A stretch of 63,286 nt of DNA, the filler included, from Diploschistes diacapsis (lineage: Eukaryota), in NCBI GenBank assembly GCA_023645945.1. It is 12 parts of 12 records of this genome, joined end to end, with 100 filler letters (N's around TTAATTAATTAA, not from the genome) between each part and the next. Parts side by side here need not be neighbours in the genome. Positions count along the whole stretch, not along the records: positions 1 to 25,902 come from JALAIB010000195.1; 11 more parts are not named here. One strand, written 5' to 3'. The translations under genes were made by a program, and so were the position numbers. This document shows, piece by piece, positions 1,501 to 50,515 of the stretch; position 1 is the first letter of the stretch; each line of letters starts with the position of its first letter. The notes under the pieces were generated by a model that saw nothing but the letters and a program-made list of their open reading frames with translations, did no database searches and was not told where the DNA came from.

Positions 1501-2298
1501 GTTAATAAGCTTCTTATCCTTTTCGATCTCGTTTCTTTTCGAAAGGATGGTCCGTTCAACTACCTCCCATATAACGGAAACACAGTCCTTTCTACCGAAC
1601 TTAATATAGCGAGCACATTTTACCGAAATAAAAAGCATTCTAATACAATCGTGAAAGAATAAGTAATAATTATAAAATAATATATCTAAAAAACCCCGAA
1701 AACGAATAATAAAACTTAAACATTTCTTTTATATCGAAGATAAAGAAAACATCGCTGTTTTATGACTTAAGATTTTCTTTTATTTGGTATTTATATTAAT
1801 TTTTCGGTGCTTATCGAGCCGATAAGATTAAAGAAAAAGAATAATACTACGATCTAAAATATTAATCGATAGTACTTAGCACGCAATAATTAGTCGGGCA
1901 TTTCCCAACTATTTCTTATATATAGTTTAATTAGGATAACACGGGTTACGTAATAAATAAAAGGTCTAAAAGACTATTCTACCCAATCGTGAGTAGAAAA
2001 AAAAACGATAATTTTATTTATTTATTTATTTACTCTATTAAAGGAATTACTGATTATATAATAACGTTATTATAATCTTTATAAATCTAGGGCGTGTTCA
2101 TTTTTATAAATATTTTAAGTTATTACTCGGGATTAATCTATATTCGTTATTTTTATTTTTAGAAAGCCTTCTTTCTAGAGATAGTCTAAGACCTATAATT
2201 ACTCTACCTTCTTCTCTTGCTTGCACTCCTCTTCTAACAGAGATCAAACACACCTTGACTCTACTTGTGTATACCTTGTATAGATAGAGATCATAACA
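1501..2298 (+). mobile_element. RIPed Gypsy 3' region plus LTR (LTR ~1845-2298)
   Basis: Co-linear with 37230-37968 (purine tract, then TAYTACGATC start, GAGATCATAACA end) and with the reverse complement of 39761-40231. Confidence 0.85.
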
Positions 2299-2299
2299 A

Positions 2300-2420
2300 A
2301 CTCCTAATCCAACATTATCCAAGTCCACAATCCAGCATAAATATTGGATCCAACTATCCAACATTTATTGGACCCCTGGTCCAAATATTATTGGATCAAT
2401 AATCCAATAATCCAAAGATC
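2300..2420. repeat. ATCCAA/TTGGAT-rich repeat fragment, probable DNA-transposon subterminal region
   Basis: ggatccaactatccaacatttattggacccctggtccaaatattattgg aligns by eye with 49900-49950 on another contig. Confidence 0.5.
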
Positions 2421-2685
2421 CTTCCTAGTAGCCCCTGGCTACTAGTTAGATCATTGCTAGTAGGACGTTCAACTGTTGTTAGTGACGTGTCCTGAAGGGT
2501 TAGAGAACCTTCAGGGTCCTACTAGTACCAACTGGTCAAATAGACTAACCCATTTAGGTTAATCATCTGACAATTCGATTGCATGATGTTTAAATTATGT
2601 AGCTACAGATTTTATAAATAAAAGTATTCTGCCAAGCCTTTTCGGACTTAGGGCTTAACTCCGTAATAAAACCGTAATATTATCT

Positions 2686-2751
2686 ATCGCCCGTTTCGCC
2701 AACTTCGCGGATTTTCGCGGTGTTTCGCCGCCAAAAACTTTTCGTGATGTA
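2686..2751 (-). repeat. Putative DNA-transposon terminus with TTCGC subterminal repeats
   Basis: The reverse complement TA|CATCACGAAAAGtTTTTGGCGGCGAAA matches 52324-52352. Similarity stops at the TA. Confidence 0.55.
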
Positions 2752-3114
2752 CTTACTTGTTCTGGTTAGTCGAACCTCTAGGTCTAGTCAATATATTAGA
2801 CGCTTCCCATTTTTCAAATGCATATCTCGACGGATTGGTCGGTCATTGGATGTGTAACTGGTGGTAAGTCATTGCTACCATAGAGTAAAGTATCAGTTGG
2901 GGCTGAGTTGTTGCTGTTGAGACATTGATATATATATATATAATCTCTGCTACCTTCACATTCCTGAGAATTTCTGAATTTGATCTGGAGTATTTTGAGA
3001 GCTCAGCTCTACCGACCAAGATATCTTTCCGTCAACTGCCAGTTAATGTTTCGTGGCCAGTACATTGAAACAATCCAAGAGTTCATGAGGTTGTGTAAGC
3101 TACATCTCACACAG

Positions 3115-4557
3115 ATGGCAACTGTTCCTGGTATCCAGCAAGTCAGCGTCCCACTAAGCAACGAGCAACAGCGAATTGTAGCTGCTTCCGAGGTGTCTCG
3201 CCAGAGACTCGGCGATGACTACGCTCGGCTTCAAGCCAAGATCGAAGACGGTAGTGACGGTGGCCTAAATCTAGGATTCTACAAACGAATACCACCATTT
3301 AATCTCTGCATTACATCTGAGTTTGCAGATCATATCCGAGAAACCCATGCAATTCTCAATAAAGTCCTGGTGGATCTTATTGGACGTTGGCACTCTGATG
3401 TAACGATGCGGTTCCCTGAAAGAATGCCACTCGAAGAACATGAGACAAGACTCCTGGCATGGATGGATGGGAACGGCAAGAAATATGTGGGGAAGTATGG
3501 CCATCGAAGCATCGGAATCTGGAGATCGGATTTCGTCATTGCAAAACAAAACAATCTCGAGCGGATCAAACTCATAGAACTGAATGCTCGGATACCTTTC
3601 AATGGACTACACGCGGTGGGGCTCAACGAGGTCGCTGTACAGAGCCTCGTCGATGGGCAGAACGCTCTGCAGCCGCTAAACGATTACGACAACACCATGA
3701 GAACCATATTGAGGCCCTTTGATGGAACAAAGCCACTCTATCTGATACGTGACATGTGGCCGGGAGTTGATTCGCCGCTGGTTCTGAGAGACTTCCAAAG
3801 AATATCTGGTTCCACGACTCGTACTGTAAAACCGTCTCACTTACGAACCAGAAAGGAAGAAGACAGTCTCCGGCTCTGTTTTGAAGAAGACGGCGAGCTT
3901 ATCGATATTGATCAATGTTGCTGTGAGCTTTTTCAGGAAGAACTGAACTTGGATGAGGAAGTTTTGAAGGCATTAGCAAGTGTCTGCCGGATTAATGATT
4001 TGAGAACTCTGCTGTTGGTTCATGATAAGCGTATCCTAGGCATAATCAAAGAAGAGATACCAGATCTCGCATCACGAAAGATCATCACTTCTCATGAAGC
4101 AAGGATTCTGCAAGACGGTATACTTGATACATTATTTCCTGGTGATTTGAAGCTTAGAGCTGTTTTGGAAGAATCCAGATGTGATGCAATGCTCAAAGAC
4201 GGGTACATCATCAAACCAGTGCGGGATGCTTCGGGTCATGGTATCAAATTTGGGAAGAATATCTCTCAAGATGAGTGGCTTACCATGTTGGAGGACCAAT
4301 GTCATCACGCGTTGCTACCTTCAGAAGGCGCCGTGGTTGTCCAGAAACTTAACAATCATGAGTGGTATGATCTGAGCTTCATCGAACACGAACGGAAACA
4401 GGTCAACTTTGTCGGTTCACAGCATATGCTTCATGGCGAATTGCAGGCCTTCGGACCATGGCGAACAGCAGTAGACACAAACTTACCTATGATGGGTGAT
4501 GTCCAAGGTATCAAGGGCATGTTGATGACATGTGTCTTGAGACCTGAAGGATGGTGA
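3115..4557 (+). CDS. Circularly permuted ATP-grasp (glutathione/GSP-synthetase-like) amide ligase, intronless, ~480 aa
   Basis: Long ORF (2980-4557; likely ATG at 3115, alternatives 3046 and 3085). Motif order WRSDF (RxD), LIELNAR (ExN), INDLRTLLLVHDKR, YIIKP-x4-GHGIKFG, VVVQK matches permuted ATP-grasp enzymes. Confidence 0.75.
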   Translation: MATVPGIQQVSVPLSNEQQRIVAASEVSRQRLGDDYARLQAKIEDGSDGGLNLGFYKRIPPFNLCITSEFADHIRETHAILNKVLVDLIGRWHSDVTMRFPERMPLEEHETRLLAWMDGNGKKYVGKYGHRSIGIWRSDFVIAKQNNLERIKLIELNARIPFNGLHAVGLNEVAVQSLVDGQNALQPLNDYDNTMRTILRPFDGTKPLYLIRDMWPGVDSPLVLRDFQRISGSTTRTVKPSHLRTRKEEDSLRLCFEEDGELIDIDQCCCELFQEELNLDEEVLKALASVCRINDLRTLLLVHDKRILGIIKEEIPDLASRKIITSHEARILQDGILDTLFPGDLKLRAVLEESRCDAMLKDGYIIKPVRDASGHGIKFGKNISQDEWLTMLEDQCHHALLPSEGAVVVQKLNNHEWYDLSFIEHERKQVNFVGSQHMLHGELQAFGPWRTAVDTNLPMMGDVQGIKGMLMTCVLRPEGW

Positions 4558-5259
4558 TGACAATCGCAGTGGCTTGCCTTTGATCCTGGTGTTTCGTTAG
4601 AGCTTACCACAATGATACATTCGGGAATTGATGAAGTGGAATGGCCTCTCTGGTGTTCGACAATGCATCCGCAAACTTCTACTTGGTCTATCGAACGCTT
4701 CCTCACCCACCTGCGGGGCTAATTTGGCGGCTGCTTTAGCTTCCGTATGGACTATGTCGAGTGCTTGCTGCTGTCATGTCCTATTATGATCAGCTAGGCA
4801 GGGCATTGGAACCATCTCTCTGCAATAGTAGAAGCCGACATCTTGACTTTTATCGCGTCTTTGATTGATGCATTGATATATCTAGTATCATCCCCTTTAT
4901 TGCCTATGGCTTGTTCCTTTCGAACGACTGAGCACGCCGCGAGTCCACAGTAAGAATGCGTTTTCGTCATCATCAAGATGTCCGCGTCAAGATGCCGTAT
5001 CCTTCGACCAGGATTGCCAATAGTACGCAGTCAGAGGGTACAACTGCTATACCGACCATTATAGAAGCTGTACGTAACGACTGCTACGGAATAAATAGAA
5101 CTGGTTTCGAACTCGCCATTGACGAAGCTTGGACCGAATTAAATTCCCAACAGTACGGTTCATCTGCTGCATCTGTTCTTGTCCTTGGTCACAATCAAGC
5201 TCTTAAATGGAACCAATGTGGGAAAGGAGTCGAAGAATGTATGCTCGAAACATCAGCAA

Positions 5260-7115
5260 CGAATCAGAGAAAGGACGTCCGGAGTGTGGCAGTATGCTAC
5301 TGACCTTCTAGACGGCCTCCTGCCTCCAGATACAAGCGGCAAGCAAGTCCACAAATGTAAGTTGTGCGTGGCAATGGGGAAAGAACATCCAGCCGAGTAC
5401 AAGCTCCTGAAGGGACCTCAGGCTTTCAAAACATCTCCAGCGAGAACATAAGGTCAAGATCACCACACGAGCCGAGATATCGACCAAGGTCGATAATTCC
5501 CAAGTGCTTCGCACCACGAAGATTAAAGGTCTCAGAGGCTGCTGGACTGCTGATACGGTCTCGGCAGAGAGCATGACAGTCCTGAGCTTCTAAGGGAATG
5601 GCGAGCCAAGAGCGCGGCTCGAGCACTTTTGCTCATATGGCTGAAGGAATACAATCTACCTTTCAGCATAGTAGAGTCCTGTGGCTTGGGAGCATTGCTG
5701 CAAAGGTTCGCACTGGACCTCGACGCCTTTCTGCCGAGCTCGCACAGCACTGTATACGGCCATCTAGAGGCAGACCAATTGCACTCCACACTCCAGGTAT
5801 CGTCCAGGATCTGACGACAACAGTATCGACGGTACATCTAGTCTTCGACTGCTGGTCGTCGCCTTTGAAGCAACCGATATTCGGCCTTGCGCGTAGGTAC
5901 TTGAGATCTGATTATCGACTGCACACCCATCTGCTCTGTCTATCAGAAGTTCTGGAGCAGCACGACGGAGCATGTGTGGCTGAGAAATTGCTCGAGTGCA
6001 CGGAGAAATAAAATTGTACTGATTGCAACGGCGCTTAGCCCATGACATCAACCTGTCCACGAAAGCTATCTTCTTTGGTGATAGCAAGGAGCCCGACGAT
6101 CCGGACGATTTCGATGCATGAAGGAGGTTCTCTTGCTACGGTAAGCTTCACAATATTGTCAATGGATCAGAGCGAGTCCGTGTTGGCTGGCGAAAAGGCA
6201 CCGAATCTGGTCGGAGCAATGGATCCAGAACAATAGCACGAGATGTCGGTCCTAGGCGAACATGTACGAGCGAGCACTGAAACCGAGAATGTCCACGAGG
6301 CAATCGATATCTTCACGCAGCAGGGGAAGGAACTTCACAAGGCTTACTGGATTCCATGGGTTTTGAGAACCTTGGGGAGCTGTGCAAACTTCCTGGGCCA
6401 TACAAGAAACTTGCGAAGGCCAGTGAAGGCCTCGATGACTCCATGGATCTAGTCTTGCCAGATTTTGATTATTCTATGGCTTATCTTGAGCTAGCAAGGG
6501 CAACCATGAGAAGTGACGAGTTCGTAGGTCCACGATCGAACGTGCTTGTGCCCTCATGGTAACATACCATATCAAGACTGGTGACACTTCGGCATACTTC
6601 GCAGCCACCGTCCTCATTCCGACTAAGAAGCTGGTTTATTTCAACAAGCACTGGCGTACCTCCGGTGCTGAAGGACCACCTCGAAGCCTGCAGCAACAGA
6701 TGTTGCTCGATCTGAAGCGATACACACAAGATGCGACGGCAACTTGGGAAGACCAAAGCTGTATCTCCAATTGATGCTTACACCAGCAAACCTGTTAATG
6801 CTTCTGCCCACGAACGGCTGCATAAGGATCTGAGAGAAGATGATCTTGAAAAAGCGAGCTCGACTCCTACCTTCGGCAGCCTAACTATGCGGTTGGGCAA
6901 GCATAAAGCATCCAACGTATTCAAGGCTCTAGGTTGGGGACTCAAGCGGAACAGTTGACCAGATATCCTTGCTTATCCAGACATGCCATCGATCTGCTCA
7001 CCGTACCACCTCAGAGCCCCGAGATCGAGCGCTTTGTTCTCGGACTGCAAGGCACCGATGACCAAACAGCGTAATCGCATCAGAGCGGAGACTCTCCGGT
7101 CTTGGGTGCGAAACG
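5260..7115 (+). pseudogene. hAT-family transposase relic (frameshifted)
   Basis: Motifs spread over several frames: BED-like SGVWQY...CKLC, NLPFSIVES, HLVFDCWSSP (first catalytic D), GKLHNIV/WIRASP, AYFAATVLIP..K..YF...W, and the dimerisation domain RYPCLSRHAIDLLTVPPQSPEIER(fs)LFS at 6961-7110. Confidence 0.85.
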
Positions 7116-7901
7116 CTCGAGGACCGGATTTTACGCATGACACACACTGTCGGTAAAAATGACGGTGGTGAAGCTCTGGAAGACGTGAAACAGATGTATT
7201 GCTTTGGCAGTTTGCATTCGAACCAGGGATCTGAATTGCCCGATCGAGAAGCTTTGTCTTTCCACGGGCGCAAAACGGAATGAACTGATCGAACAATGTT
7301 TCCTGCATCGACGAGAGGGGCTCATGGTCTGATATGCCCGCATGCGTGCATGTGTGTGTACTGTAGTAATTTGGATAGCCTGTGAGATTCACAAATACTG
7401 TAGAGTGCAAAAAGTTGATGGATTTTTTCGCGAAGTGGCGGAAGGACTGATGAACAAAGTTGGACTCATTGCACTCGTGAGCAAAGCTCGGGCATCATTT
7501 GTATATAAATACATAATTGTAGAAGGCGCAAGAGGCACATTTGCACATCTCCCTCGACACGATGTAGCGGCGCGCGGAAAGGTTCAAGAAACCGTTTACC
7601 ATTAAAAGCGGTTTGCACCGTCTTTTCGTTTCGCTAGAAGTTGTACGCCTACTTGTTGAGCTGTAACCAGGCTTCGCTTGGCAATAACTTTGGTCTATCT
7701 CTTTGCTTTATAAGTACTGCACATAGATGACTAGTTGTAACTTTCCCTATCTCCCATGCATTGCTATTTCTGCCTCTTCGCGCTTGCCCTACCTAACTAG
7801 CACCTAGCCATAATCATTGACACTGGCCAACACGTGCACATGCTGAGGTCCTAACATCCAGTCTCACATGCTTTCCCAAGCCTCGTCGTCACTGCTAGCC
7901 T

Positions 7902-10900
7902 TTAGTCCGGAGGACACTCCGCCCCCGCCTTAATCTCTGACCTTACAATATCGCTCGCCTTCGCCGCCAACATCGCGATCTCTCTAATACTAGTACTTCC
8001 AAGGATCCTAAACACCGGCACGTCCGCCCCAATCTTCCTCGCCATCCAATTACGCACCTCGACCGCCCCCAACGAGTCGACGCCGTACGCATGCGCCGGC
8101 CTTCCGGCGTCGATTTCCCTCTCAGACACGCCGAGCGCCCGCGACAGCTTACGCACCAGCCCCGCCAACACGGCCTCGGCCGCCGCATCGAGTGAAGCCG
8201 CGGCGGCTAGACTCACGCGCAACCCGGCATCGGCGTCGGAGCCATCGCCTGCTTGTGCCTCTGCGGTCACAATGCTGCCGCGGCCCGCATTGCGCACGTG
8301 CCGGAACAACGGCCGCACCATCCAAAAGGGCTCTGGAATGCCCGCGGCCGCAAGAGCACTGGCGGTCTCCATGCCCGTGATGACCTGGGCCCCTTCTGGG
8401 CTGGCGGGAAGGGGCCGGCGCGCGTCGCAGCACGCGTCGAGCAGAGCGAGGAGCTCATGCTCGGCGACGGCCCCATAGCCTTGCGCTACAAGGTAGTCCG
8501 TGACTTGCTGGCGCTCGGCCGCGTAGCCGACGGAGGATACGACGCCAAGGTCAATTGCGTAGGCGCGTTGGCCGGCGGCGACGCGGTGACGCGCGAGCGC
8601 GTCTTGGAAGGTGTTGCCGCTGGCATAATTTGCTTGGGAGCGAGAACCGACGATGCCGGAGCCGGAAGAGAGGAGGACGAAGAAGTCGAGGGCTTGGGGA
8701 AGAAGGGTGTGGAGGTTCCAGGACCCGGCGATCTTGGGATGAAGGGGGATTTGGAATTGTGTGAGTGTCATGCTCTCGAAAGGAGTGTCCTTGGGAAGGC
8801 TCATGTTAGTTGGGTCATCCGAGTTCGGGGTATAGAAGTAGGCGTTCTTACATAAAGGGCCAAGGTGGATTGGATGCAGCCTCTGATTGGGGGAAGGACT
8901 TGCATTTGCGAATGCAACACGGATTTTAGGGCTGCTTCGTCGGCGATGTCGCATGTCGGTGTAGCCACTATTGCGCCTTCCTTCTGGAGGTCATCAATGA
9001 ACTCTCGGGTGGACTCGCTGCGCGTTGTAGAACGCGAAAGTAGAATGAGATATCGCGCTCCTCGGCTGACCATCCAACGCGAGATGCTCTGTCCAATGCC
9101 TCCCAAGCCACCAGCTATCACGTATGTAGAATTATGATCAAAATCATAGTCGGAGACTAATCGAGGTACAACCTGGATCCTCAGTCAGCTAAAACCCCAT
9201 CGTTGAATCTATACCACCCACTTGAACAGTATCATCTTCGTCCATGGAAATGACAAGCTTCCCAGAAGACTTGCCACTTTGCATGTGTCGAAAAGCCTCT
9301 TCCATCTGGGAGGCCCTATATATGCTCAGCGGACGTGGTGCAAACAGCGATCTATCCTCAATTAGTCTCATGACCGCCGTCATAGTTCTTCCAAGCAAGG
9401 CAGGGTCATGCTCGAGCATGTGGGACATGTCGACCACGGAAAACGTTCCATTAAGCCTGAAGTTTGAAATAGCCAGTGAGCCGCGGTCACGGCGACCAAA
9501 CTCAACGAAGGTACCAAATGGTGCCAAGCACTCGTAAGTAGCCAGCAACGCCTCATCAGTTAACGAATTCAGAATGATGTCCACGCCGCAACCATTAGTC
9601 GCTCTTTTTATGGCGTGTCTGAAAGTTGTTGCGCGACTCGAGAATATGTGATTGCCTGCAATCCCGTATTCTGATTTCAGGACTTGCCTCTTCTCCTCGT
9701 TCCCGACCGTTGCAAAAATTTCCGCACCAAATAAACGGGCAATTTGTATCGCTGCTTGGCCAGTTCCACCAGCCGCCGAATGAATCAGAACCGTGTCACC
9801 CCTTCTAATATGAGCGACTTGTACTAGAGAATGGTACGCAGTACAGTATGCTACTGGCAAAGCAGCCGCGGTCTCGAAGGATAGGTCAGCTGGCAAAAGA
9901 GCTGCGGTGATGGCCTTGCACCGGACATATGTTTTCATCGCCCCATGAGACCAGCCGCATACCCGATCGCCCTCCAGAAAAGGGACGTCGGGGCCTCGTT
10001 TCACAACGACCCCAGCGAACTCTAGCCCTAGTTGAGTGTCATCGTGTACACCGAGTGCAATGAGTACGTCGCGAAAGATGAGACCACTCGCTTTGACCTT
10101 GACTTCCATTTCATCCGAGGCCAGTTCCGCACGCTCGGGCCTTTCGTCTTGGAATTCGAGAGTGTTAAGCAGACCTGGACTACCGACGGTTAAGGCCAAC
10201 CCACGGTTGGAATTATCACCAAGCGTCTGCGGCACCGGAACTTGTGGTATTGTTCGACACGCCACATGCGTTGAAAGAGCCTTGTCTTCAACGATCCGAT
10301 TGATGTATAATGCGCCATGTCTGCTCTCATACTCTGGTTCGTAATCGTCGCTTACTGTTGTAACGGTAGTTGTGTGGGCTTGAACAATAATATTGGCGGA
10401 GAGATGAGCTGAATCTGTGTTTTCAAGGGCAAGCGTCGTAAACCTCACATTTACACCCTCGGATCTCAAGGCTCTAGCCAGACCGATTATGGAATCTGAG
10501 TTGGGATCCTCAGCCACGGAACAGCTCTTATTTGTAACCCAAGTGATGATGCGAGACGACTGAAAAACTTGCTTTAACGCCACAAACAGTCGTTCTGTCA
10601 TATTTGGGAGAACTGCACGTTCGGTTTCGCAGAGGAAGATGTAGTCGGCCGTGGTCCGAATGTTCAAATGCAGATCATCCACTACAATGACTTCATATCT
10701 CTGATTTTCTGCCTGTAAAGAGCTCGACGTGATCTCTTGAGCGATCTGGAGTTGGACCGAACTACCATCATCGATTATAATGAGTGTCGAATCTGGGATC
10801 TGTTTCAGAGACTTGGCAACATCATGATCTGACGCTGTCGCTATTATCACGCTATTGTCTCTTTGGCCATCATCCTTATGATCAGGCCAATGGAAGTCAA

Positions 10901-13900
10901 TTCCATTATAGCCGTTTTCTCTAAGGGCTACTTTCCAATGGCTTGGTGTCAAAAGCGGACTATTTTTTCTAAAGTCTTCGGTGCTTAGCCACCATCCTGC
11001 TAATACACCAAACACAAATGTCGTCCTAATAGTCTCGGGGATAGTGAGCTCAAAGAGTATTAGCCTTCCACCTGGCTTGAGGAGCGGCCGAATATTCTGT
11101 AGTGTGTAGGCGATGCTCTTTGTCGCGTGAAGGGTGTTGGAGGCTATAACGAGATCGTAGGTACCTGCTTCATAGCCTTGTTCTAAAGCATTTTTCTCAA
11201 GATCCAAGGTCTGGAAAGCCACACGGTGCCCTTGGCCTTGGAAAATTGTACGAGCCTTTTCAAAAAAGCTTGCGGAGATATCTGTGAAAGTATACCTTGT
11301 AAAGCATGCGTCTCTCGTGTGGTGGTTCGTTAAAGTCTTGAGAATGAATTTGGTCATACCTCCAGTGCCACCTCCTACTTCGAGTATATTTGATGCAGGG
11401 AATTTATGAGCAAACAACTCCAGATAGGAAGCTAACTTTGAAGTGGCCGAGTTCATCAATTGAGAAACGTAGTAAGTGTCCATAAGATCGTCGGCGAACA
11501 ACAGTTCCAAAGCATCCATGTTGCCACTGATGATATCAGGAAGATGTTCTCCCAACCTTAAAATAAGCTTGCCATCTGGATGATCGCCTTCGTGAAGGAG
11601 CCGTATGATTTCGTCTTGTAGTTTGGAATCTCTTGCGATGTCCATCCATGTGCCGTATTTGCCGGCGCACATTGAAGCGAGGTAATCACTTCCCATCACG
11701 GATCTCATCCACGTTAGATATTTCTGTAGATGTGGCTTTGGCTCGACTTGCGACTTTCCACACATTCCTAGAAGTGTTTTCGAGATCAGCACTGCAGCAC
11801 CAAGCTCCAGTAACTCGACGCACTTGACCGACATTTCGGAATCTGTGGCAGCGTTGCAGTATTGTTCGATCTGTGTCCGACTGAGGAGTTGGATGTCAGG
11901 TTTCCATGACATACTATAACATAAAGGCCCTCGAGTTGCATCTGTTGAAGCCTCAAGATTTTCAACCGACGTGGCTTGAAGCCCGGATATGACTATAGCA
12001 GGCGTTGAGGTACTGGAATCGAGAACTATCGCAGAAGACATAGCAGTACGCATACCTTCCCATGCGGCGTTGACATAAGCTCGAGCTGTTCCTCCATCGG
12101 ACTGCGGGTTAGAAATCCCCATTCCGGCTATCCACATTCTTTTCAAGCGCGTCGGAAGCATTGCGGACATCCTCAATTGATCTCCTCGAGCAAGAGCTAG
12201 AACCATAAGCTGGAATACGCCGTCCATGGCGGTAGGATGAACAACAAGGGTTCTGAAGCCATCTTGATCCCAATTGCAAGGATGGACGCTTGCAGTAGCA
12301 TTTCGAGCCTTGCGGTCAAACGTGACTTCACTAAGAACTTGGAAGGTTGGGCCGTATTCTAATCCACTTTTCTTTAGGTTCTTGTAGAGGATGTTCGGAG
12401 CGATTGAACTCCTACACCGAGCATCTAGCGCCCTGCAATGTGTGTCAGACTCACGCAAATTCTCCCCTTCTTCAAAGTCACGCGAAGAATCGTTGTTGCT
12501 GTATTCAATGACAACGGTTCCGCGACAGCATTCCGACCATTCTGGGTCCTCGTATACATGAAGACAGAACTCTCGCCAACTTGACGATTTGGTGACGATG
12601 CCAGGAACCTGTCGCAAGGAAATCTCTATTTCGACGCCGTCCCGATCCGGAGAGAGCATGATGGCTTTGCTGAAGGTAACATCCTCAACCCTAAACCCGG
12701 ACACTTTCTTTGCTGGGTCGGCCAAGTACTTGGCGGCCTCAATGGCCAGGACGATCATTCCTGCTCCCGGATACAGAATAGTGTTGTTCACGATATGATG
12801 AGTTACCCAACCTGTATCAGACAGCCTGACTATCTTCCGCCATCTTGCATCGAGAATGTTCCAGTCAGGGACAGTGGAGCCGAGAAGCTCATGCTCTGCA
12901 TGCTCTCGGAACCTGAAGCTTTTACTCAACCTACTTTCTATCCAATGTTGTTGGCCGTGGTTGAAAGGGTAATAAGGAGCATCTGTTAGCATTTGAGGCT
13001 CTTCTGAGCCTGCAGGGAAATTGATCGCAGTAAGTTTGACGGGGACTCCAGAGCAATAGAGATTCCCAGCAGTCTTCAGGGAGCTCTGAAGTGCGCAAAC
13101 ATCTTTGATCAACAAGGAGTTGTATGCGACTGTATCGTATTGGTTGATTGACTTGAGAATGTCCCTGATTGGAATTCTCAGGGCAGAATGGGGACCAATT
13201 TCAAGGATATGGTCAACGCTCTGTCGAGTCTGCCTGGAGTTTGTTTTGAGCGGGGTGCACATCTTCAGCACTGCTTTTGAAAATTGGACAGGTTGTGTGA
13301 GGTTCTGAACCCAGTAATCCGCTGTCTGAAGTTGACCAGCCGATGTTGGCAATCCAGTTAGCGATGAAATGAAAATTGGGATGGCGAGATCTTCAGTTCC
13401 AGATTCAATGTTCCCAATCAATGTTTGGTACTCAGACGCAATGGCATCCATAGACTTTGAATGGTACGCTATGCCAACGTTTAGTTTGCGAGCAAATATT
13501 TCCCGTTGTGACAGTATTGTCCGAATGGCATCGATTTGTGATGCGTCACCACTTAACGTCACGTTCTGAGGACTGTTTATGCATGCGATAGCGACTGAGC
13601 CAGTCTGAATGTCATTAGCTAGCGTCTGCAGATTTGAAATCATTTCGTCTTCCGAAAGTCCCACAGACATCATGGCCTCTGCTGCTACCCTCGTACTGCA
13701 CAAACGTCTGGCAAGAAAACCACGGTAATATGCTATCTTCCACGCTGATTCCCGGGAAATACTTCCAGCGGCATAGGCGGCGGCAATCTCTCCAGATGAG
13801 TGGCCAAGTACAGCAGAAGGTGTAACATTCCAATTCCGAAGAAGTTGGACCAGCGCGACCTGTAACGCGGTACATATAGGCTGGGTTAAGGAAAGATCGT

Positions 13901-16257
13901 CAAGCTTTGAGTTGGCTCTTTCTGAAAGTAGCTCATCTGCGAATCGTGAGCATAATCGACTGACGCTAAGTAATAGACAAACCGATCAAAGACCACTCGC
14001 AGCCCAATGTAGAGAGATATTTATCCGCAGCAGAGAGGCTCTCTTTGAAAGTTTCATACCTCATCAACTCCCTCCCCATGGCCCACCAATGAGCACCCTG
14101 GCCAGTGAAGATATAGCCAAGGTTCTGTTTTTCCATGGACCGAGTAGGTTTGGAACAACGGTCTGATAAAGGTGGCTTGAGCTCCGAAGTCGCTGACGCT
14201 AGGAAAGTCGATTTCCATGGCAATTGGCTACGCTTTTCTGACAGTGTAAACGCGAGATTCTCCATAAATGTTTTATTTATGTGATGCTCCGGCAATGTTA
14301 AGAAATACTCATCGTACGCGGATGCCAAACGATTAATGCCCGCTTCATCAGATGAAGACAGAGTGAACAGTAACGGTCTCATGCCGCCCTTACGTTTCCA
14401 ACCACGTACATTCAGAGACTCGTTGGAACGAGATTTGGAGCACAGATGGGTGGCGACATTTCGGACGGTGCAGTGTTTGCCAGACATACCTCGAGACCTG
14501 AGAAAGTTGTAAGCATCATCAAGTACAACATGAGCATTAGCTCCGCCGAAACCAAACGAGTTGACAGAAGCTCGACGAATGCCTGCTCCAGGCCACACGA
14601 TGGTCCGTCTGGGAAACTTAACAGCTTTCAGCACTCATCTCGTACTTGCGCATGGAATTAATTCTCACCTCCAAGTTCCATTCATGCATGGGGATATTTG
14701 GATTAACACGCTCAAAACAGGCATTCTGGGGTATGATGCCTTTCTCCAAAACCATGATTGTCTTTATCAAACCGGCAATCCCACTTGCGCCTTCCAGATG
14801 TCCAATGTTCGATTTGACCGCACCGACGAGCAAAGGATCCTTCGGGGATCTGTAATGCCCAAAAACTGCATGTATCGCACTCGCTTCTATTGGGTCGCCC
14901 ACTGGAGTGCCAGTACCTGCATCATATGCATCAATACCGAAGATATTGAACAGTTTCGATGCCACGAGATAGCCTGGCAAGGGTATAACGTCGTGTCTGA
15001 TATTACTTACCATGGGCTTCAAAAAAGCGTGTCACCCCGGGATCAAGACCTGCTTTGCGATACGTTTCTCTTATCAACGCTGCCTGAGCTTCACCACTTG
15101 GCTGAGTAATGGCTGGAGTTCTTCCGTCTTGATTTGAACCTGTTGAGGTATATGTTGGCAACACTCAATCCTCCATGCCTCCGGTAGGCTTACCTGTAGC
15201 TCGAATGATGGCTCGTATCGTATCTCCATCCTCGATAGCTTTGGAGAGTAGCTTGATGACGACGACGCCAAAACCCTCTCCACGGGCGTAGCCGTTCGCT
15301 CGCCAGTCAAAGCTGTAACAAATACCGTCCGGCGAAAGGAGGTTCAGGTCCGTCATTGAAAGCATGCTTTCGGGATTATAGAAGAGGTTACATCCGCCTA
15401 CGACTCCCTACCTAACTTTAGCGGGAATCCTTAACCGCAGACAAGGGCGCACCATGTCCGCATCGTGATCGCGTAATCCTTGACACGCCAAATGGAGTGC
15501 GTTAAGACTACTCGAGCACGCAGTATCGATCTGTAGGCTTGGTGCGCCAAAGTTGAAAAACCAACTGAGTCGATTAGCCAGCATTCCAGCTTCGGTACCA
15601 GTGGCAAGGTATTTCGCTGATGTTTGGGGGTCTTTCTCCAACAAAAGTTTATAATCGTTTGTGAAAGAGCCAATAGAGACCGAAGTCTTTGATCCATATA
15701 CCTTTTCCATCTGCATTCCGGCTGGGCACACGTTAGGACTACGAGTGTCTGAGGAAGGCCAGTCATATAGGCTCACCATTCTCGAGTGCTCTGTAGGCTG
15801 TTTCGAGTAATAGTCGTTGTTGTGGATCCATGCAAGCTGCCTCTGCCGGAGTGATTGAGAAGAAAGGCGCATCGAATTCCGCTATATCGGACTTCAAGAA
15901 GTGCCCCCCTTTGACGTTCATCTACCCGGACTGTAAGAATAGAATAGATATGAGTGCAACAGAGGGTAGCTTTACAGTCCCGGTTCTGTTTGGGTTCTGG
16001 TGATAGAAGCTCTCCTGATTGAAACGGTCCTTTGGAATTCCGCTGGAGGTATTTATGCCATCCACCATAATCTTCCAGAACGCTTCGGGAGAAAGTGCTT
16101 CTTGTGGAAACCGTATCGCATACCCGACAATTGCGATAGGTTCGAGGAGGTCCGGCTCTCCCGAGACTTCAACAAGCCTCTCGGCATGGCTATTGCGGTA
16201 AACTGAGTCTGATAGCCCTTCCGACACCTCTAGGAATACTGGCCCGGTGGTGTCCAT
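7902..16257 (-). CDS. Highly reducing iterative type I polyketide synthase KS-AT-DH-cMT-ER-KR-ACP (multi-exon, ~9 introns)
   Basis: [65 protein letters not shown]. c[63 protein letters not shown] introns (e.g. 15975-15922, 8851-8790) restore the frame. Confidence 0.96.
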
Positions 16258-17951
16258 GTGCGCAACTGCGTTCAGCCTGACAGATTCTTAAAGAGAGAGA
16301 GATATTCGTAAGGAATAGGTAAAATAGGTGATGTGAGGTCGTCGAACCCCATCCTAGGACTATGTTTTAGCGATAGGTCTCACAGAATCCCCCCGCTGTT
16401 TACGAGTCTGGGGATGCTGGCGTGCTCATATCATACTTCAAGCGATCAGGAGTGATTGATTCGTCTCCCAGTGAGAAGCCGAAAGCTTTTCTAGTCGGCC
16501 GGACCGTCGAGATGCGGCGCAGCGACAATGGACTCGTTACTCGAGCCATTGTCTTCATGACTTCACCTATCTATAGGCTGGGAGGTGGCAGGGCGGACAC
16601 AAGCGGTGTGAGCCACACGGACGGATCAAACTCAACGATGTCACTGATACAGGTAGTCGGAAAACGACGTGCAACGTTTCGCTCTTCGTCTGCGCGTCGG
16701 ATGTGGCGCAGATTGCTTGCATGAAAGCTTTCCCAGCTTCGGTATCAGCTCTTCTCACGATCCCATTTCTCCCACACTGTATATAGGGTTAGAGCGAGAA
16801 ACCTGTAGCAGATAATGTATGTGCCAGTAGGATTCATCCTTTTACCAGAAGCGAGCCATTCAGAAAGCTTTGTGTTGCTGGACTGGTCGATGAAGCCTTT
16901 GGCAGACCCGGATTAACATGATAGTGGGTAGACTAGTGCAAGTTCTTGTTAGAAGGTTTATGTTATCACTCTGTGGGTAGACTACCTTCGTGCCAAGTCG
17001 CGCTAATATCAATCAGATAAACTAAAAGCTACCTGCCTAGCTAGTGAAACCACGAGTAAATGCTAGCAGCGCAGTGGGCATACCTCCGCGGTGTTTTACC
17101 CATAAAGAGGTAACTTACTTTATATGTAGGTAAACCAACTGGCCTGAATGCTTTGTACTTCATCATGCCGTGGACTTTGTGGTAGCTTTATAACACATCA
17201 TAACACATCATATTACACTAGTATAGGTACTCTGGTGAAGCGCCTGGCCCAGTCGACATATCAAACAACATTATCGACCACTGTCTATATCGGGATGCTT
17301 AGTCTGTATGGTAGTAGCCTCAGCGTTACCATCGCATCCTCCCGATTTTGTGTTCGAAGCTAAGGTAGACAACGGTTGCGTAATGCAAATCTGTCTAGGA
17401 AAGAAAGAAAGAAGCTGCTGTAGATCTCGTTGTTGAGTGTGTGGTTGCAAATAATGGCCAAGGGGTTCTGGTGAATCTGTGCACCTTACAGGGGTTTCAA
17501 GACACCAAGGAGCAGGATCATCGGGTCCTAGGTTGGTAATTCATGCTTGGGAGTGCCTGAACATCGGCTGAAAGCTGTGCCCCAAGGCTGGCACCTAGTC
17601 TAGAGTCTAGGAAAGCCCCATGCCTCTTTATCAGGGAATCCCACAATCCGCTAGCTAGCAAGGTGCAGTGCACCACCTTGAAGGAACCAGCTCGGAGCAG
17701 GATTCGGAGTAGACTCAGGGAACAGATGTGCCGTCAAGTCTTCTAACACAGCATTGCGCCGGCTTCCCACTTGCCTTTGCTCTAGTATACGCGGAAATTG
17801 CGTGGCTCAGACTTGCTACAACGACTCTGCTTTCAACCGGCCAATGAGTTTCCATAAATTGAATTTCAGTCTCTAACCATCGTCATCATCGCTCTAAAGG
17901 GCTTTCTTCCCTTCCATAGGAACTTCAAAAATTTGTCTACCAATATCAAAA

Positions 17952-19138
17952 ATGAACGACTCCCAAGCGAGAGATATTGCCCTCGTGGTAGGGCTAACGG
18001 GTATGTCCACTGTGATTGTCATGCTCAGAATCATCGCTCGAATGAAGGGCAAGGCTACCTTTGGGGCTGATGACTACTGGATATTCGCTGCCGCGGCGCT
18101 CAACTTACCATATATGGGAGTCTACATATGGGGTTTGTTGCTTGCGGATACTGGTCCAGGCATTGCTGACGTGCACAGGGGCAATTCAAGAACAAGGCAA
18201 CCATGATCTGGGCCAGCTTCCCTTGGCCTCTTTGATCGAGTATCTCAAGGTCAGATACTGAGGGCTGTTCTAAAGATCCATACCATCTAACGCCGAATGC
18301 ATAGTCCGTATACATCGACGCTGTGCTGTACTGCATTATCATCACTTTCGCCAAGTACAGCGTGCTTTGTCTCTATCACAGGATCTTTGGCAAGGCTATC
18401 AGACGCGGTATCATTGCCGTGGCCATGATTCAGACTATTTGGATGGTAGTCTGCGTTTGTGAGGGTCTATTTCGATGCAGTCCTGTACAAGGAGCTTGGG
18501 ATGTCACGATTTCGGCCGTCTGTCAAAACTTTCAGCTTATCGTTATAGCTGCGGAGCCTTTCAACTGCTTTCTAGATTTTGTCATGGTGGCACTCCCGAT
18601 CCGCGTGGTCAGGAGTCTACAGCTCCCAGTACGGCACAAGATCGCTGTCTCAGCCATCTTTCTTCTAGGCAGTTTGTAAGTACTGAATCCAGCTGCCCCT
18701 TCTACCGAGTCATCCAAAGCTAAAGCTAGAATACCTAGCGTCGGGATCATGACCATTCTGCGCATCATAGAGACGGCGAACGGAAACGTCAATACCAGTA
18801 ACGTGTGGGTTCTCGCTCAAATGAACACCGGGATAGTTTGCGCTTGCTTGCCAACTCTTCGGGCGATGTTGCCCAGGAACGACGCCATCCTGAATGGTTT
18901 GCGAACTGTTGCTTCCTTACTGGGACGAACATCGACTTCAAGAGCACCTGGACATGGCGCAAGCGGCCCCGACTCTAAATCGAGGAGTAAGAACTCCCGT
19001 TATCGAAATCTCGATAACGACAACATGGCGGATTCGGCGTATCTCACGATAACATCACGAGGATCAGACATTCTCGAGACCGATCGGAATTTTCCGTTGG
19101 ACAGGATTGTTGTGCAGCATGATGTAAGCATAGCTTAG
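17952..19138 (+). CDS. Rhodopsin-domain (PTH11-like, no CFEM) integral membrane protein, 4 exons
   Basis: GADDYWI, AKYSVLCLYHRIF, CSPVQGAWD, DFVMVALP, NTGIVCACLPTLR. Three GT-AG introns give a continuous frame. Divergent from the PKS. Confidence 0.9.
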
Positions 19139-19609
19139 AAAATGTTTAACGAACCCTGGAAGAATTAGATACCGGATCCGGGAATCCAGTTGACCCGCCC
19201 ATGACTCTGGGCTCCTCCTGATAAGTTCAACAACTCGAAGGATCTGCACTGAAACCCCCTTACCTCTCTGGCAAGTCGCACCAATATGCATTGTAACCGT
19301 AACCGTAACCGTATAAAAGGCTCCTTCGAGTGCTTAATTACTTGATGCATTTCAGAGGCGTCATATATAAGCGACTAATACACTCCTGACAGTTCCGGGC
19401 TGAGCTATATAGGAAACGTGGTGGTTGCACAGGAAGATAGATGTATTGGTTCTACAATAATCATTGCAACCATACATAAGATTGCTTCCGAGAGCTAAGC
19501 AAAGCCTACCTTCTGCCGCAGTACGACGCATCTGGCCGGGCAGCAATAAATGTGACCTCCATTCCGTTTGTCTCTAGCAAGTGAACTAGAGCCCATCTCT
19601 ACACTTCAA

Positions 19610-20621
19610 ATGGCCTCATCAGAGCACCGGCTGATCGATCAGGTGGCTACCGTGAGCCCACGGCCCCAGCCAATGCAAGTCATCGCACTGGGGATGTCCC
19701 GCACTGGTACCTACTGTATGTTGTGTCAAAACTCCGAGTCGGGCTTGAAGTCGACGCTAATGGTGGTGCCACGGACCAGCAATGTATACTGCTCTGAACA
19801 TGCTTGGCTACAAGACATACCACTGTGCCGAGATTCGCTTGAGGGCAGCAGGAACATATGATTTATGGATTGAGGCGCTGAGAGCCAAATTCCACGGCAA
19901 GGGAAAGAGGTACGGCAAAGTCGAGTTTGACAAGCTGCTCGGGGATTATAGCGTAAGTTAAGCCACGACCCTTCACCAGTTTCCCCATTTGGACTAACCA
20001 ACACTTGAGCAGGCCATCACGGACATTCCCTGTCTGATGTTCACAGAGGAATTGATTCAAGCCTACCCAGACGCCAAGTTCCTCATCACGACTCGCGACG
20101 AAGACTCCTGGGTGAAATCCATCACGGGGCTCTTCAACACCATCCTCGGCTGGAACTGGTATGTTGCATCATTCGACAGGGTAAGTGTCACGAGTTACCT
20201 TTCAGTGATCATCCCGAATCAAGATCCTACTTAACCTCCCTTCTCCGAACAGCTCAGGGTCCAGTCCTACGTAGAAATGATCACCATCGTCTGGAATCTC
20301 TGGACCGGCGGCAACTGGAAGGACGAGCAAAAGCTCCGTCAATCGTTCCGCGACCATTACGCTCTTGTACGATCCAAGGTGCCCAAGGACAGACTGCTGG
20401 AGTTCCATCCGAGCGACGGCTGGGAGCCTCTGTGCAAGCATCTTGGCATCCGCGACGTCCCTGCGGAGCCTTATCCCCGCGTGAATGACCTGGCGTTCAC
20501 CATCGCCATCTTCGATATTCTATGGTGGGCGACGGCCAAGAAGGCTGCAACGGATGTGGCACTAAAGGTGTTGATTCCCGGGGTGGCGGTGGGTGTAGGA
20601 ATGTTGGTCTATCGGCTCTGA
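19610..20621 (+). CDS. P-loop sulfotransferase-like protein (Sulfotransfer_4 type) with C-terminal hydrophobic anchor, 4 exons
   Basis: VIALGMSRTGT, ALNMLGYKTYH, FDKLLGDY/AITDIP, YPDAKFLITTRD..SWVKS, DGWEPLC..LG, YPRVND. Three introns with CTAAY-like branch sites. Confidence 0.88.
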
Positions 20622-20975
20622 AGGAGCCCGTGTGTGGGTGGGCTAATGGGAGGGGGTTGGATCAGTTGAGGTAGCATTGGACTTGGCCCACATCTACCCC
20701 GTTATAATCTACTGGTTCCTGCATGCGGGGGCATGGCAAGGGAATCAAGTCTCTTAGCCCACGTTTTCTTTTGTTTTGTAACATTTGCCTGTGCCGTGGA
20801 AGAATCGGGCGTACCCTCGCAAGAGGACTTCCACCCGGCTCGGGTAGGACAGTGTCACAGGTGAAAGGGAGGGTGACAAAAAGCACCCGTAGTTTTTCTT
20901 GGCGTGACTTTGGCCTAGAATCAGATTTCCAGGATGCACGCCAAGAACAACTGCAGGACGTTTGATAAGTAGTTA

Positions 20976-21082
20976 CAGTCAGGTGCCAAAAGTAGTTAGG
21001 TACACCATAAGCGGCAGTAAAATAAACAGTCAACTCTTTACTGCCGCTTATGGTGTACCTAACTACTTTTGGCACCTGACTG
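20976..21082. mobile_element. 107-bp Tc1/mariner-type MITE (46-bp perfect TIRs, TA TSD)
   Basis: 20976-21021 is the exact reverse complement of 21037-21082, with a 15-bp spacer, CAGT...ACTG termini and TA on both sides. Confidence 0.9.
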
Positions 21083-23513
21083 TATGAGGATAAAGGGGAA
21101 AGCCAAGAAGGATTTCACTCGGGATCCTTCAAGTCCTAGTACGGTTCCTCCAAGCTGCTACGTTCTCTATCTTCGCCCCCCCTTCCCCTTTTGACATGGC
21201 AACGCCCCAGTCTATGCTTCTCGCAGCTATCCCTGATTCGATGATGCCCAAGCAAAAGCTTCGAAATGAAATGGCCTGACTACAGCGTCGACGAAGGAGA
21301 GCCGGGTTGTAAGAATACTATCCTCCCAAAACAAATGTTGTCGATTCAACTTCATTTGTGAACATGGAATGTGAAGGGTAGATGGTTGTCCTGAAATGTA
21401 TGTGGACGCCCGCTAACAGCTGAACACGGGCTGGAGTTATGTTCTACCGGGCACGTGCCATTTGTCACAGTCGTACACTGTCACGTGATCTAATGCTTGG
21501 ATACCGGATAATCACTTAACCGGCCCCGAAACATCATTGCTTAGTAACCCTTTCGATCAATCTTCTTCGAATTAGTTAGTTGATGTATTATACAAAGGAG
21601 CTCCACTCCAGGGACAATACTGGGACCCACCTAATTAGTACAACAGACATACTAATAGGCAACAAAAACACAGTGGCTCAACCACCCTCACTTTCTTCTA
21701 ACATTGCAAATCCAATCAATATGATTCTAACAAGCCAGCCCCCCTCCCTTCTCCCAACACGCCTCTACCATCCTGCTCGTCGCGCGTATACCGTGGCCGG
21801 CAACGGCTGGGCCATACGCGGCCGCCCTCCATTCCCAGCTCGCTATGGATCCATCCAGCGACGTGAAGAAGCCGCGTATCATGTTATAGAGGACTAGCGG
21901 CGCGCCTATGACAACGAGTATGGTGCCTGCAGTTAGTAAGAGGGCGAAAATGAGCTGGGGGAGGAAGTGGGGGACGCTGGGGGTTGTGGACGACATTTAT
22001 TTGTGCTCGGTGCTGTTTAAAGGTGGGTATGGGGGTATGGTGTTGTGGCTGTTGACGCTGGGAATGAGAGCGTGGAAGCAGTGCTGAGGCTGAGAGACTT
22101 GGGAATAAGATGATGGGTCTTCGATGGCGGGTTATGCTTCGATATATGGGCTATTCTTGGCTTTGGGGTGACAATAAAGTGGTGTAATCGCTTTGTGAGC
22201 TTTTCTTGCCGAACAATGAACTTTATTTGATCCAAAGGAAGGAGCTTCTTTGAACTTATATTAGAATGCCAGGGATATCTATAGATTTTGGTTTTCGCAT
22301 CTCCAAGCTGCGATTCTCTGATCCGATTAGCTTGGAAGAGGTCAAGGGGCACTTCAACATGCCATCTTTCTCGCGAGTTTCGGTGCTTCGGTGCCTAAGC
22401 ATCCCCTGGGGCGACAGGATAATAGCATTCGCATGCTCTTCTTCTGGAATATTCAGAAAATGGAACCGATTTGGAGGAAAACCCGTTGGAACGCAGAACT
22501 TCGTGGTTCAACCACCCCAGACCATCGGAGCTACCAACAGAAGTCAGCGGAATTACTTGGCACTCACACGATCCCAATGCCATTACCATTAAACGGCGTT
22601 GGCGTCTAAGTAGTTAAGGAGGGCTTAATTGTGAGAATCGATCTGTTCCGGATGCGTTTTGCCTTTGAAAATTATGGAGACACTTATCACAATGCCTAAG
22701 AGACACGAGTTGCTTATTGTCACTATCAGCAGCCAAGCGTTTCTTTTTAAGAAACACTGGCAGTCTCCGGCGGCACTTGAAAGAAGTTCTTGCAATGAGA
22801 GAAGATACCGAAGAGGCATTGTGCTTGGATGACGGCTAATATTGATGCGAGTGCTTAAGTACGTGTCTGGGGCGACTTGAGCTTGTTGAAGAGGATAGCA
22901 GTTCATGAGGATAAAGAGAATGATTCGATAACATTAACAGGAATAGTGTTGGAGCTCGACACCAGCTTGACCGTGTAAATGTCATGTTCAATCGACATAA
23001 CATACGTGGGCAATTTCATTGACCCTCGAAGTTGAGATGGAGACCCAGAAGGTACACCAAGAAAACACTAACGATGTGTATGCGGATACACTGGAATCTA
23101 TTCTTGGTTGTGTTAGAATACTCTTCGACCCTGTTGAATCTATGTCTACTGCTTGATAATTGGCTAGAGTGCTTCTCGAAACCGTTTGTTTGCGCTGTCT
23201 GCTGCGTGACAATTGTATTTGTTTATATCGTAGCTGAAAGCACCCGTGTTCATCCAGGTGCTGGTGAATGCATCGGAGTTCACCTCGATGCCAAATGCTG
23301 TCATCATCGATCGTCAAGAAGTGCATTGAAGCTCTTTTTGGCCACAACGCCCACTTACTTATGTTGAAGCTTTCATGGTGTTGTTAGGCACTTGAGCAAC
23401 GGCAGCCTTGGGGTATATATTACTTTCATCTGGTGGCCTCTGATTCCTATTATCTGACCGTGGAACATCTAGGTCGCCCTTGAACAATCACATTCAAATC
23501 TGAAGCTCAAGCC

Positions 23514-28949: not shown

Positions 28950-29115
28950 CGGATAGGCCAGCACCTGAACTTTGTCCTAAGCAGAGTATTGAAACATCAG
29001 GATACGGGCATGAAAAGGATTACTGCAAGCCTGCAAGGTGAACTATACGAAGTACTAGAAAATAAAATACGAAGTACGCGTCAGACTCTGTGGAACACGT
29101 CTAAGCGATGGTGGC

Positions 29116-41242: not shown

Positions 41243-42967
<1,725 letters not shown>

Positions 42968-43067
42968 NNNNNNNNNNNNNNNNNNNNNNNNNNNNNNNNN
43001 NNNNNNNNNNNTTAATTAATTAANNNNNNNNNNNNNNNNNNNNNNNNNNNNNNNNNNNNNNNNNNNN

Positions 43068-49765: not shown

Positions 49766-50515
49766 NNNNNNNNNNNNNNNNNNNNNNNNNNNNNNNNNNN
49801 NNNNNNNNNTTAATTAATTAANNNNNNNNNNNNNNNNNNNNNNNNNNNNNNNNNNNNNNNNNNNNTCCGCATTATTCGGCCTATAATCCAACCTGATAGT
49901 GGATCTAATTATCCAACATTTATTAAATCCACGGTCCGAATGTTATTGAAATATTAATGACGTCAATATCGATGATATATTTTCGATACTGAATACCGAC
50001 CGTAGCACCGAAAATAATTAATAATTTAGGACTATAAGGCCAGAATATTAAGTTTAGAATAAAAGATCTTCGGGATAAAAATAATGGATATTAAGCCTAC
50101 AACCTTTCAATAAAAAGGTTATTTAATCGTCTTTATCATTCAACCATCCCGCCATGACTATAGGTTATAAATAAGATTATATAGTATATTGGATTAAGAA
50201 GACCCCAATGGCCGCGTACCGAAACAATATGACTTAAAATATAAATGCTGTGTCTCAACAAACCTGTTGCTTTTACTAATAGACTAGCTAGGCTCTCAGG
50301 ATTTTCGACGATGTCGAGTAAAATGCCAATTTCAAATGATCGTGTAATCTTTCCTTGAGTGAAGATCTACTAGATAACTTGGTAAACCTATCTTAACCCA
50401 CAGCGCCAAAACTGTGTTGATGGCTCTTAGTACCAAGCCACCTGGATAGGCCCGTGGTCGTTATCTTCGTTGCGCAAATTGTTTGGCCCGTATCAACAGC
50501 TTTTTGTTGGGGTGT

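Follow-up and report, generated by a model that had tools for sequence, protein, structure and literature searches.

Most polyketide synthases of the highly reducing type (HR-PKSs) have no dedicated release domain in cis. In the cyanobacterial CurM and OLS polyketide systems, off-loading depends on a sulfotransferase that is a domain of the polyketide synthase (PKS) and is followed by a thioesterase (TE). PMC11677658 states that, prior to its own work, just one fungal sulfotransferase dependent on 3′-phosphoadenosine 5′-phosphosulfate (PAPS) had been demonstrated to act on polyketides, and it makes no mention of PF17784 (Sulfotransfer_4); a title in its reference list calls SgdX2, an enzyme of secondary metabolism, an "activating sulfotransferase". 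Cp1B, as described in PMC12568646, is an ATP-grasp enzyme that joins trans-epoxysuccinate and an L-amino acid in the biosynthesis of E-64. Here we describe a locus in Diploschistes diacapsis in which genes related to these systems lie together: an HR-PKS, a protein with seven transmembrane segments (7-TM), a PF17784 sulfotransferase and an ATP-grasp ligase. The locus occupies positions 3115-20621 of the window, i.e., the whole stretch of fungal DNA analyzed (63,286 nucleotides, filler included, from assembly GCA_023645945.1), and all coordinates are positions of that window.

The four genes were intact, with catalytic motifs, according to open reading frame (ORF) and spliced models and Pfam searches. 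We consider it slightly better than an even bet, with a probability of roughly 55%, that the locus consists of a conserved and uncharacterized lichen module, made of the PKS, 7-TM and sulfotransferase genes, standing beside an independent neighbor, the ligase gene. The features of the locus and its borders, which include DNA altered by repeat-induced point mutation (RIP) and a candidate miniature inverted-repeat transposable element (MITE), are as follows.

2-470 (+): Ty1/copia reverse-transcriptase relic, RIP-degraded, left border (RVT_2, E 1.5e-18)
3115-4557 (+): 480-aa ATP-grasp ligase encoded by a single exon; Cp1B family (E-64 pathway), sister clade (PDB 9cjn_A, E 4.7e-62)
4558-7901: 3.3-kb spacer on which the ATP-grasp and PKS genes converge, no recognizable gene
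7902-16257 (-): HR-PKS, KS-AT-DH-CMeT-ER-KR-ACP, 2614 aa, 10 exons (Pfam, spliced model, collinear tblastn)
16258-17951: upstream region common to the divergent PKS and 7-TM genes (gene models; no Pfam match among its ORFs)
17952-19138 (+): multi-pass membrane protein of the Fung_rhodopsin family (PF20684), 4 exons and 340 aa (two exons match with E 1.1e-29 and 2.4e-5; hydropathy segments)
19610-20621 (+): PF17784 sulfotransferase with a hydrophobic C-terminal tail, 271 aa, 4 exons (E 1.4e-20)
20974-21084: MITE-like palindromic high-copy element, 111 bp, right border (48-nt arms 100% complementary, 15 nt apart)

The evidence for the module comes from other lichen fungi. The 120 PKS relatives listed were matched with the sulfotransferase relatives plus the members of their 90% clusters, and in five of the seven lichen genomes or contigs where both were matched the two were neighbors.

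Heterodermia aff. obscurata, 117394 nt: sulfotransferase Q9195_005614, PKS Q9195_005615; consecutive tags
Variospora velana, 25670 nt: sulfotransferase Q9210_002564, PKS Q9210_002566; a single tag in between
Seirophora scorigena, 26265 nt: sulfotransferase Q9173_002958, PKS Q9173_002960; a single tag in between
JGI contig, 19632 nt: sulfotransferase P0167, PKS P0054; contigs of equal size
JGI contig, 24499 nt: sulfotransferase P0193, PKS P0051; contigs of equal size
Cladonia borealis, 1.71 Mb: sulfotransferase JMJ35_003662, PKS JMJ35_003514; same contig, 148 tags apart
Seirophora villosa: sulfotransferase Q9193_001737 (15396-nt contig), PKS Q9193_000877 (20977-nt contig); different contigs

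The five linked PKSs ranked 5, 8, 13, 14 and 19 among the 120 listed, and the linked sulfotransferases were 57-68% identical to exon 4 of the enzyme in the window. A search with this last exon returned 25 relatives, the top four being 68, 57, 59 and 53% identical before a drop to 44%. In Variospora and S. scorigena exactly one tag separates the two genes, matching the place of the 7-TM gene in the window. Because the PKS and sulfotransferase relatives adjoin in most of the matched cases, the three genes are read as a conserved lichen module, with the PF17784 sulfotransferase as the conserved partner of the PKS, probably joined by the 7-TM protein. The pairing of PKS and sulfotransferase had been proposed in a reading of the sequence alone (hereafter, the sequence-only reading), and these neighborhoods support it. 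It could instead be that the PKS alone matters and that its three companions (sulfotransferase, 7-TM protein and ligase) have no relation to it, a situation common around fungal PKS genes. Such an explanation would profit from the large size of the PF20684 and PF17784 families in fungi and from the two matched genomes in which the genes are unlinked; we regard it as unlikely since five independent linked pairs, which involve the top-ranked relatives of the sulfotransferase and of the PKS and come from three genera of lichens plus two contigs of metagenomes, would be hard to obtain by chance. The papers listed in our literature searches included none relevant to a lichen gene cluster of a sulfotransferase with a polyketide synthase, and none that, judged by title or abstract, dealt with PF17784 or Sulfotransfer_4 in a fungal biosynthetic gene cluster (BGC).

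The PKS model has nine GT-AG introns of 45-94 nt and a 7845-nt frame with no internal stops, and in tblastn comparisons it was collinear with residues 30-2607 of a 2607-aa PKS of C. borealis. The motifs identified were DTACSS208, HGTGT346, NIGH383, GHSSG685, EVGGGTG1493, GGTGQAA2030, GGLGGIG2233 and GVDS2555. The expected motifs were all found; in the DH domain the strict H-x3-G-x4-P pattern was not matched and the sequence reads H-x3-N-x4-P, a G to N change. Apart from this change, the domain order and active-site motifs fit a fungal highly reducing iterative type I PKS. The last exon encodes the KR and the ACP (PP-binding and ACP_SdgA_C in Pfam), and the protein terminates 59 residues past the ACP serine with no TE, R, C or carnitine acyltransferase domain detected by Pfam, confirming the early end after the ACP described before. 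The Pfam families of these four release domains were found in none of the 120 relatives listed, and for this reason an ACP-terminal end is the norm of the family; the lack of a release domain, which had been presented as a peculiarity of this PKS, is not one. Among those 120 matches the closest relatives were two ENA proteins (55% and 50% identity), the first of which belongs to the same 90% cluster as a Thelotrema lepadinum PKS, and the best named relatives, at 39-42% identity, all came from lichen-forming fungi (Cladonia, Xylographa, Heterodermia, Variospora, Sclerophora and Icmadophila).

The exons of the sulfotransferase matched the solved structures 5tiz, 4mua, 8y9p and 9kf1 with E values of 3e-5 to 3e-10 (3e-5 for exon 3 and 3e-10 for exon 4), and when the enzyme was taken together with its lichen relatives the match to solved PAPS-dependent enzymes reached 1e-18 to 1e-31. 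Conservation extends to the motifs RTGT-x-S, TD-x-P and T-x-RD-x2-W-x-S, which take the form of GMSRTGTYS, ITDIP and ITTRDEDSWVKS and all align with the solved enzymes. These three segments are candidates for the PAPS-binding (phosphosulfate and 3′-phosphate) motifs. Judging from the sequence, PAPS-dependent O-sulfonation is most likely the chemistry of this protein. With respect to off-loading of the CurM type, no thioesterase or alpha/beta-hydrolase match was found by Pfam between 3 and 21 kb.

The membrane protein had been called rhodopsin-type. It is indeed a 7-TM protein of the Fung_rhodopsin family, and the retinal-protein sense of the name was not upheld: PF20684 was the sole Pfam family at E≤0.01, and the bacteriorhodopsin-like profile of microbial (type I) rhodopsins was not matched. 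An exhaustive profile-free search with its largest exon returned 5650 representatives at E≤0.001, two of them at E≤1e-30. The closest were 71, 57, 53 and 49% identical, the remainder not exceeding 45%, and the sole named one among these four (53%) belongs to the lichen Letrouitia leprolyta.

The borders and the continuity of the locus were analyzed in the window and in two sequencing runs, X1 and X2, the latter from another study. The entire stretch also occurs in a run labeled lichen metagenome, which may be its source. The window alternates between blocks with a GC content of about 0.5 and AT-rich blocks of about 0.3 that have RIP-like dinucleotide indices. The AT-rich block on the left extends to about position 3000 (GC 0.29-0.33), and for positions 1-3000 the indices were 1.12 for TpA/ApT and 0.71 for (CpA+TpG)/(ApC+GpT). 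The copia relic at 2-470 was detectable solely when stops were read as X. Read depth was about 4800 at 2500-3150 in both runs. On the right, the arms of the palindrome (20974-21021 and 21037-21084) form a perfect 48-nt inverted repeat, and the bin containing it, 20728-21378, had a depth of 2700-4200 in the two runs. A contig of run X2 links position 20973 to 21096 through 28 different letters that replace the 111-bp palindrome, which shows that the element is a recent insertion. These results bear out the borders proposed earlier, a RIPed retroelement on the left and a MITE on the right. A single 18279-nt contig of run X1 spans 2723-21001 with no differences and, together with the gene models, confirms that the four genes lie on one gap-free stretch. 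The contigs of run X2 cover 7586-20409 with 1.5-2.1% of letters differing (about 98% identity), indicating that the PKS, 7-TM and sulfotransferase genes are present as a block in a close relative. Run X2 gave no cover for the bins at 3151-7056, which hold the ATP-grasp gene and most of the spacer; no contig bridges this gap, hence it is not evidence that the ligase gene is absent. The same run has 25 different letters instead of 67 bases at 17077-17145, in the PKS/7-TM intergenic region, an indel difference between close relatives.

The three genes of the module are compact, with a 1.7-kb divergent region between the first two and a 471-bp gap between the last two. The spacer that separates the PKS from the ligase gene (4558-7901) is not RIP-like and has two inverted repeats of 19 and 16 nt. 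None of its 35 ORFs of at least 55 aa gave a Pfam match above the cut-off, and codon-usage scores were mixed (0.07-0.10 for two plus-strand ORFs and about 0 for the others). A sub-threshold hAT dimerization match at 6907-7071 (+), with E 0.0035 and 17.5 bits against a cut-off of 21.4, may represent a decayed hAT element.

The family of the ligase had been left unrecognized, and it could be assigned to a characterized one. Residues 57-454 align with residues 75-498 of the 9cjn_A chain, "Ligase Cp1B", the sole strong match among solved structures. Precomputed annotation places the ligase in PF28486, and a local Pfam scan gave ATPgrasp_ST alone, at 17 bits, below the cut-off. The WRSD...ELNAR segments align with WRPD...EINAR of Cp1B, so that R139, D141, E163 and N165 are all conserved; mutation of any of the four is reported in PMC12568646 to cripple Cp1B. 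The ligase is predicted, with high probability, to form an amide by joining a carboxylic acid, as its acyl phosphate, to an amine or amino acid.

A search of about 5.8 billion proteins gave 46 relatives of the ligase at E≤0.001. Among those with names, the best belong to Talaromyces (five species, 36-39% identity) and Fusarium (two species, 34%), and a second group, with 27-34% identity, includes an Aspergillus bertholletiae protein that by eye closely resembles Cp1B. No paper naming any of six locus tags of ligase relatives was found. A scan of JGI metagenomes yielded 20 loci of relatives with 23-46% identity. A tree of 51 rows was built from 45 of the 46 relatives (P0012, a truncated duplicate, was omitted) plus six metagenome ORFs. 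It split with support of 100 on both sides in the Shimodaira-Hasegawa-like approximate likelihood ratio test (SH-aLRT) into the clade of the window ligase (28 rows) and a Cp1B-like clade (23 rows) that holds all six metagenome loci placed on the tree. Within the Talaromyces/Fusarium clade the window ligase diverges basally on a long branch, and its exact position is unsure because long branches meet there.

The neighbors of the metagenome relatives were compared with those in the window. The ORF scan of six loci took in 53 of 107 long ORFs after overlapping ORFs were dropped, with L001, L008 and L016 omitted as duplicates of L002, L007 and L014. A TauD-type dioxygenase adjoins the ligase in five of the six loci, one of which also has a decarboxylase dependent on pyridoxal 5′-phosphate (PLP), and several have MFS or ABC transporters; the neighbors in these five loci follow the E-64 pattern. 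In L014 (7623-9464; duplicate L016, 4798-6639) a 614-aa frame combines the C-terminal part of an ATP-grasp protein with a TauD domain (residues 354-474), which is either a natural fusion or a read-through. When 418 ORFs from the 20 loci were compared with the window, 47 of 48 matches were to the ligase gene and the other one, with E 0.007, was at 54.6 kb. Since the locus ORFs match the ligase gene alone, the ligase of the window is not in an E-64 cluster, and Pfam found no Fe(II)/2-oxoglutarate oxygenase or ANL amide-bond synthetase match in the window. That the ligase is the remnant of a cluster for a cysteine-protease inhibitor of the E-64 type, with the oxygenase and the amide-bond synthetase destroyed by RIP, would agree with its family and with the RIPed DNA that begins less than 200 bp upstream of the gene. 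We deem this very unlikely: the ligase belongs to the sister clade, outside the TauD-neighbored ligases; nothing else in the window was matched beyond the weak hit at 54.6 kb; and the left flank, with stops read as X, yielded copia reverse transcriptase alone.

The sequence-only reading had proposed the ligase as a possible partner in the cluster. In the 20 metagenome loci tblastn detected no homologue of the PKS, the sulfotransferase or the 7-TM protein and, as far as these sequences go, the distant relatives of the ligase are not PKS-linked. Moreover, none of the 46 relatives came from the lichen genomes, or from contigs judged by size, that carry the PKS-sulfotransferase pair. Among the genomes and contigs compared, co-localization with the PKS was seen for the sulfotransferase and not for the ATP-grasp gene. 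If all four genes formed one pathway, the ligase would couple the released polyketide acid to an amino acid to give a lipo-amino acid independently of a nonribosomal peptide synthetase (NRPS), and sulfation would follow. The adjacency of the genes on a single contig between repeat blocks and the intact ligase with its catalytic residues speak for this pathway, as do the activation of non-amino-acid carboxylates by the Cp1B family and the statement in PMC12568646 that BGCs with no relation to E-64 contain homologues more than 30% identical. We nevertheless find the single pathway unlikely in view of the comparisons just given, of the convergent orientation of ligase and PKS across a spacer in which no gene is recognizable, next to three compact genes, and of the known acid substrate of Cp1B, a small dicarboxylate and not a long acyl chain. 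As seen through these sequence comparisons, membership of the ligase in the cluster is possible in principle, unsupported and unlikely.

Several points weigh against a conserved module with an independent ligase. Linkage was deduced from locus-tag order and equal contig sizes, not from DNA, and the single middle gene in Variospora and S. scorigena is known by tag position alone. Two of the seven matched cases, C. borealis and S. villosa, are unlinked. The linked PKSs are just 40-43% identical to that of the window, and at such identity their orthology is unproven; the two closest relatives, those with 55% and 50% identity, lie on ENA contigs of 152677 and 21316 nt with no sulfotransferase match that could be paired. 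Finally, the ligase is intact, keeps its catalytic residues and is just 3.3 kb from the PKS, which leaves room for a lineage-specific recruitment. In such a recruitment, which we judge quite improbable, the ligase would have joined the PKS/7-TM/sulfotransferase module in this lichen lineage to give an NRPS-free sulfated methyl-branched polyketide acyl-amino acid. If true, the recruited ligase would be the first case of a Cp1B-family enzyme acting on a polyketide acid. In a second bold variant, the stand-alone sulfotransferase would activate a beta-hydroxyl for elimination, thereby shaping or releasing the chain. None of the papers listed in the literature search dealt with an amide-forming pair of a fungal ATP-grasp enzyme and an HR-PKS; Supplementary Fig. 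23 of PMC12568646 covers the non-E-64 BGCs with Cp1B homologues and may be relevant to whether homologues linked to a PKS have been described before.

Returning to the conserved module as the preferred explanation, the three genes probably make a sulfated, or sulfate-activated, methyl-branched reduced polyketide, as predicted from their domains and motifs. The PKS would build a methyl-branched, largely reduced chain that leaves the ACP without a dedicated release domain in cis. With PAPS as donor, the sulfotransferase would then O-sulfonate one of the product's hydroxyls at a membrane, a location suggested by its hydrophobic C-terminus and by the adjacent 7-TM protein. The sulfate could be the final ester or a leaving group, in the manner of the "activating" sulfation by the related SgdX2 and schistosome enzymes. 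Export, anchoring or self-protection are guesses at what the 7-TM protein may do, and the ligase may be what remains of another small pathway that disappeared in the RIPed DNA to its left. Nearly all reducing-PKS clusters of lichens are uncharacterized, and the sulfation of fungal metabolites is a little-studied subject. The recurrence of a PKS-sulfotransferase pair across several genera of lichens therefore offers a concrete, testable lead to sulfated (or sulfate-activated) aliphatic polyketides. The ligase is a divergent addition to a clade that is sister to the recently described amide ligases of E-64 biosynthesis, enzymes of interest as biocatalysts. The original four-gene proposal is thus narrowed to the part backed by comparative data.

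Other genes were found outside the locus. The statement that no hydrolase is present was correct for 3-21 kb in the Pfam scans and did not extend to the whole window, as a sulfatase (41.2-43.0 kb) and an Amidohydro_2 protein (48.6-49.8 kb) are encoded beyond further RIP blocks. The first, at 41243-43015 (+), is an arylsulfatase-type gene (Pfam Sulfatase, E 5e-20) with its CS|PTR active-site motif split by an intron; its 3′ end enters a run of N near 42.97-43.02 kb, and it lies between RIP blocks, 21 kb from the sulfotransferase in window coordinates. The second, at 48578-49813 (+), is a 411-aa ORF of the hydrolase/decarboxylase type (E 3e-19), and nothing else in the window has a higher coding score. 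Two housekeeping-type genes encode a HlyIII/adiponectin-receptor-like protein (30449-31780 (-), E 1e-57) and a Bax inhibitor-1 (50516-51136 (-), E 2e-52), and a Tc5/pogo-type transposase DNA-binding domain is found at 53837-55105 (-) with E 1e-14. Two regions belong to no Pfam family: 23484-24949 (+), with ORFs of 194 and 296 aa in adjacent frames, the larger of which (24062-24949) gave clusters of "hypothetical protein" from Ascomycota alone in the Atlas, and 26475-28976 (-), an 833-aa ORF.

Compared with known systems, the ligase resembles Cp1B and Cp2B (Aspergillus flavus, PDB 9cjn, Liu et al., Nat Chem Biol 2025, PMC12568646) by homology over residues 57-454 with conserved catalytic residues, and its 480 aa are close to the 517 residues of the deposited chain. 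It differs in belonging to a separate, uncharacterized clade with Talaromyces and Fusarium proteins and in having Ala at the position that, counted on the alignment, corresponds to the pocket residue F175; unlike in the E-64 pathway, no Fe/2-oxoglutarate oxygenase, ANL amide-bond synthetase or PLP decarboxylase is nearby. The PKS shares domain order and ACP end with fungal HR-PKSs that terminate in ACP, such as the lichen PKSs and one relative annotated as alt5, the alternapyrone synthase. Among the 120 matches listed, its identity does not exceed 55% with any protein and is 36% with the alt5-annotated one, and it has no characterized orthologue. The sulfotransferase is homologous across the fold, with conserved motifs, to 4mua (the oxamniquine-activating enzyme of Schistosoma), 8y9p (SgdX2, of sungeidine biosynthesis) and 9kf1, from which it is set apart by its hydrophobic C-terminal tail and its position next to a fungal HR-PKS. 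With respect to CurM and OLS, it differs as a membrane-anchored protein apart from the PKS, from a different Pfam family and without a TE, and the likeness lies in the pairing of a sulfotransferase with a PKS, where sulfation of a beta-hydroxyl could drive elimination.

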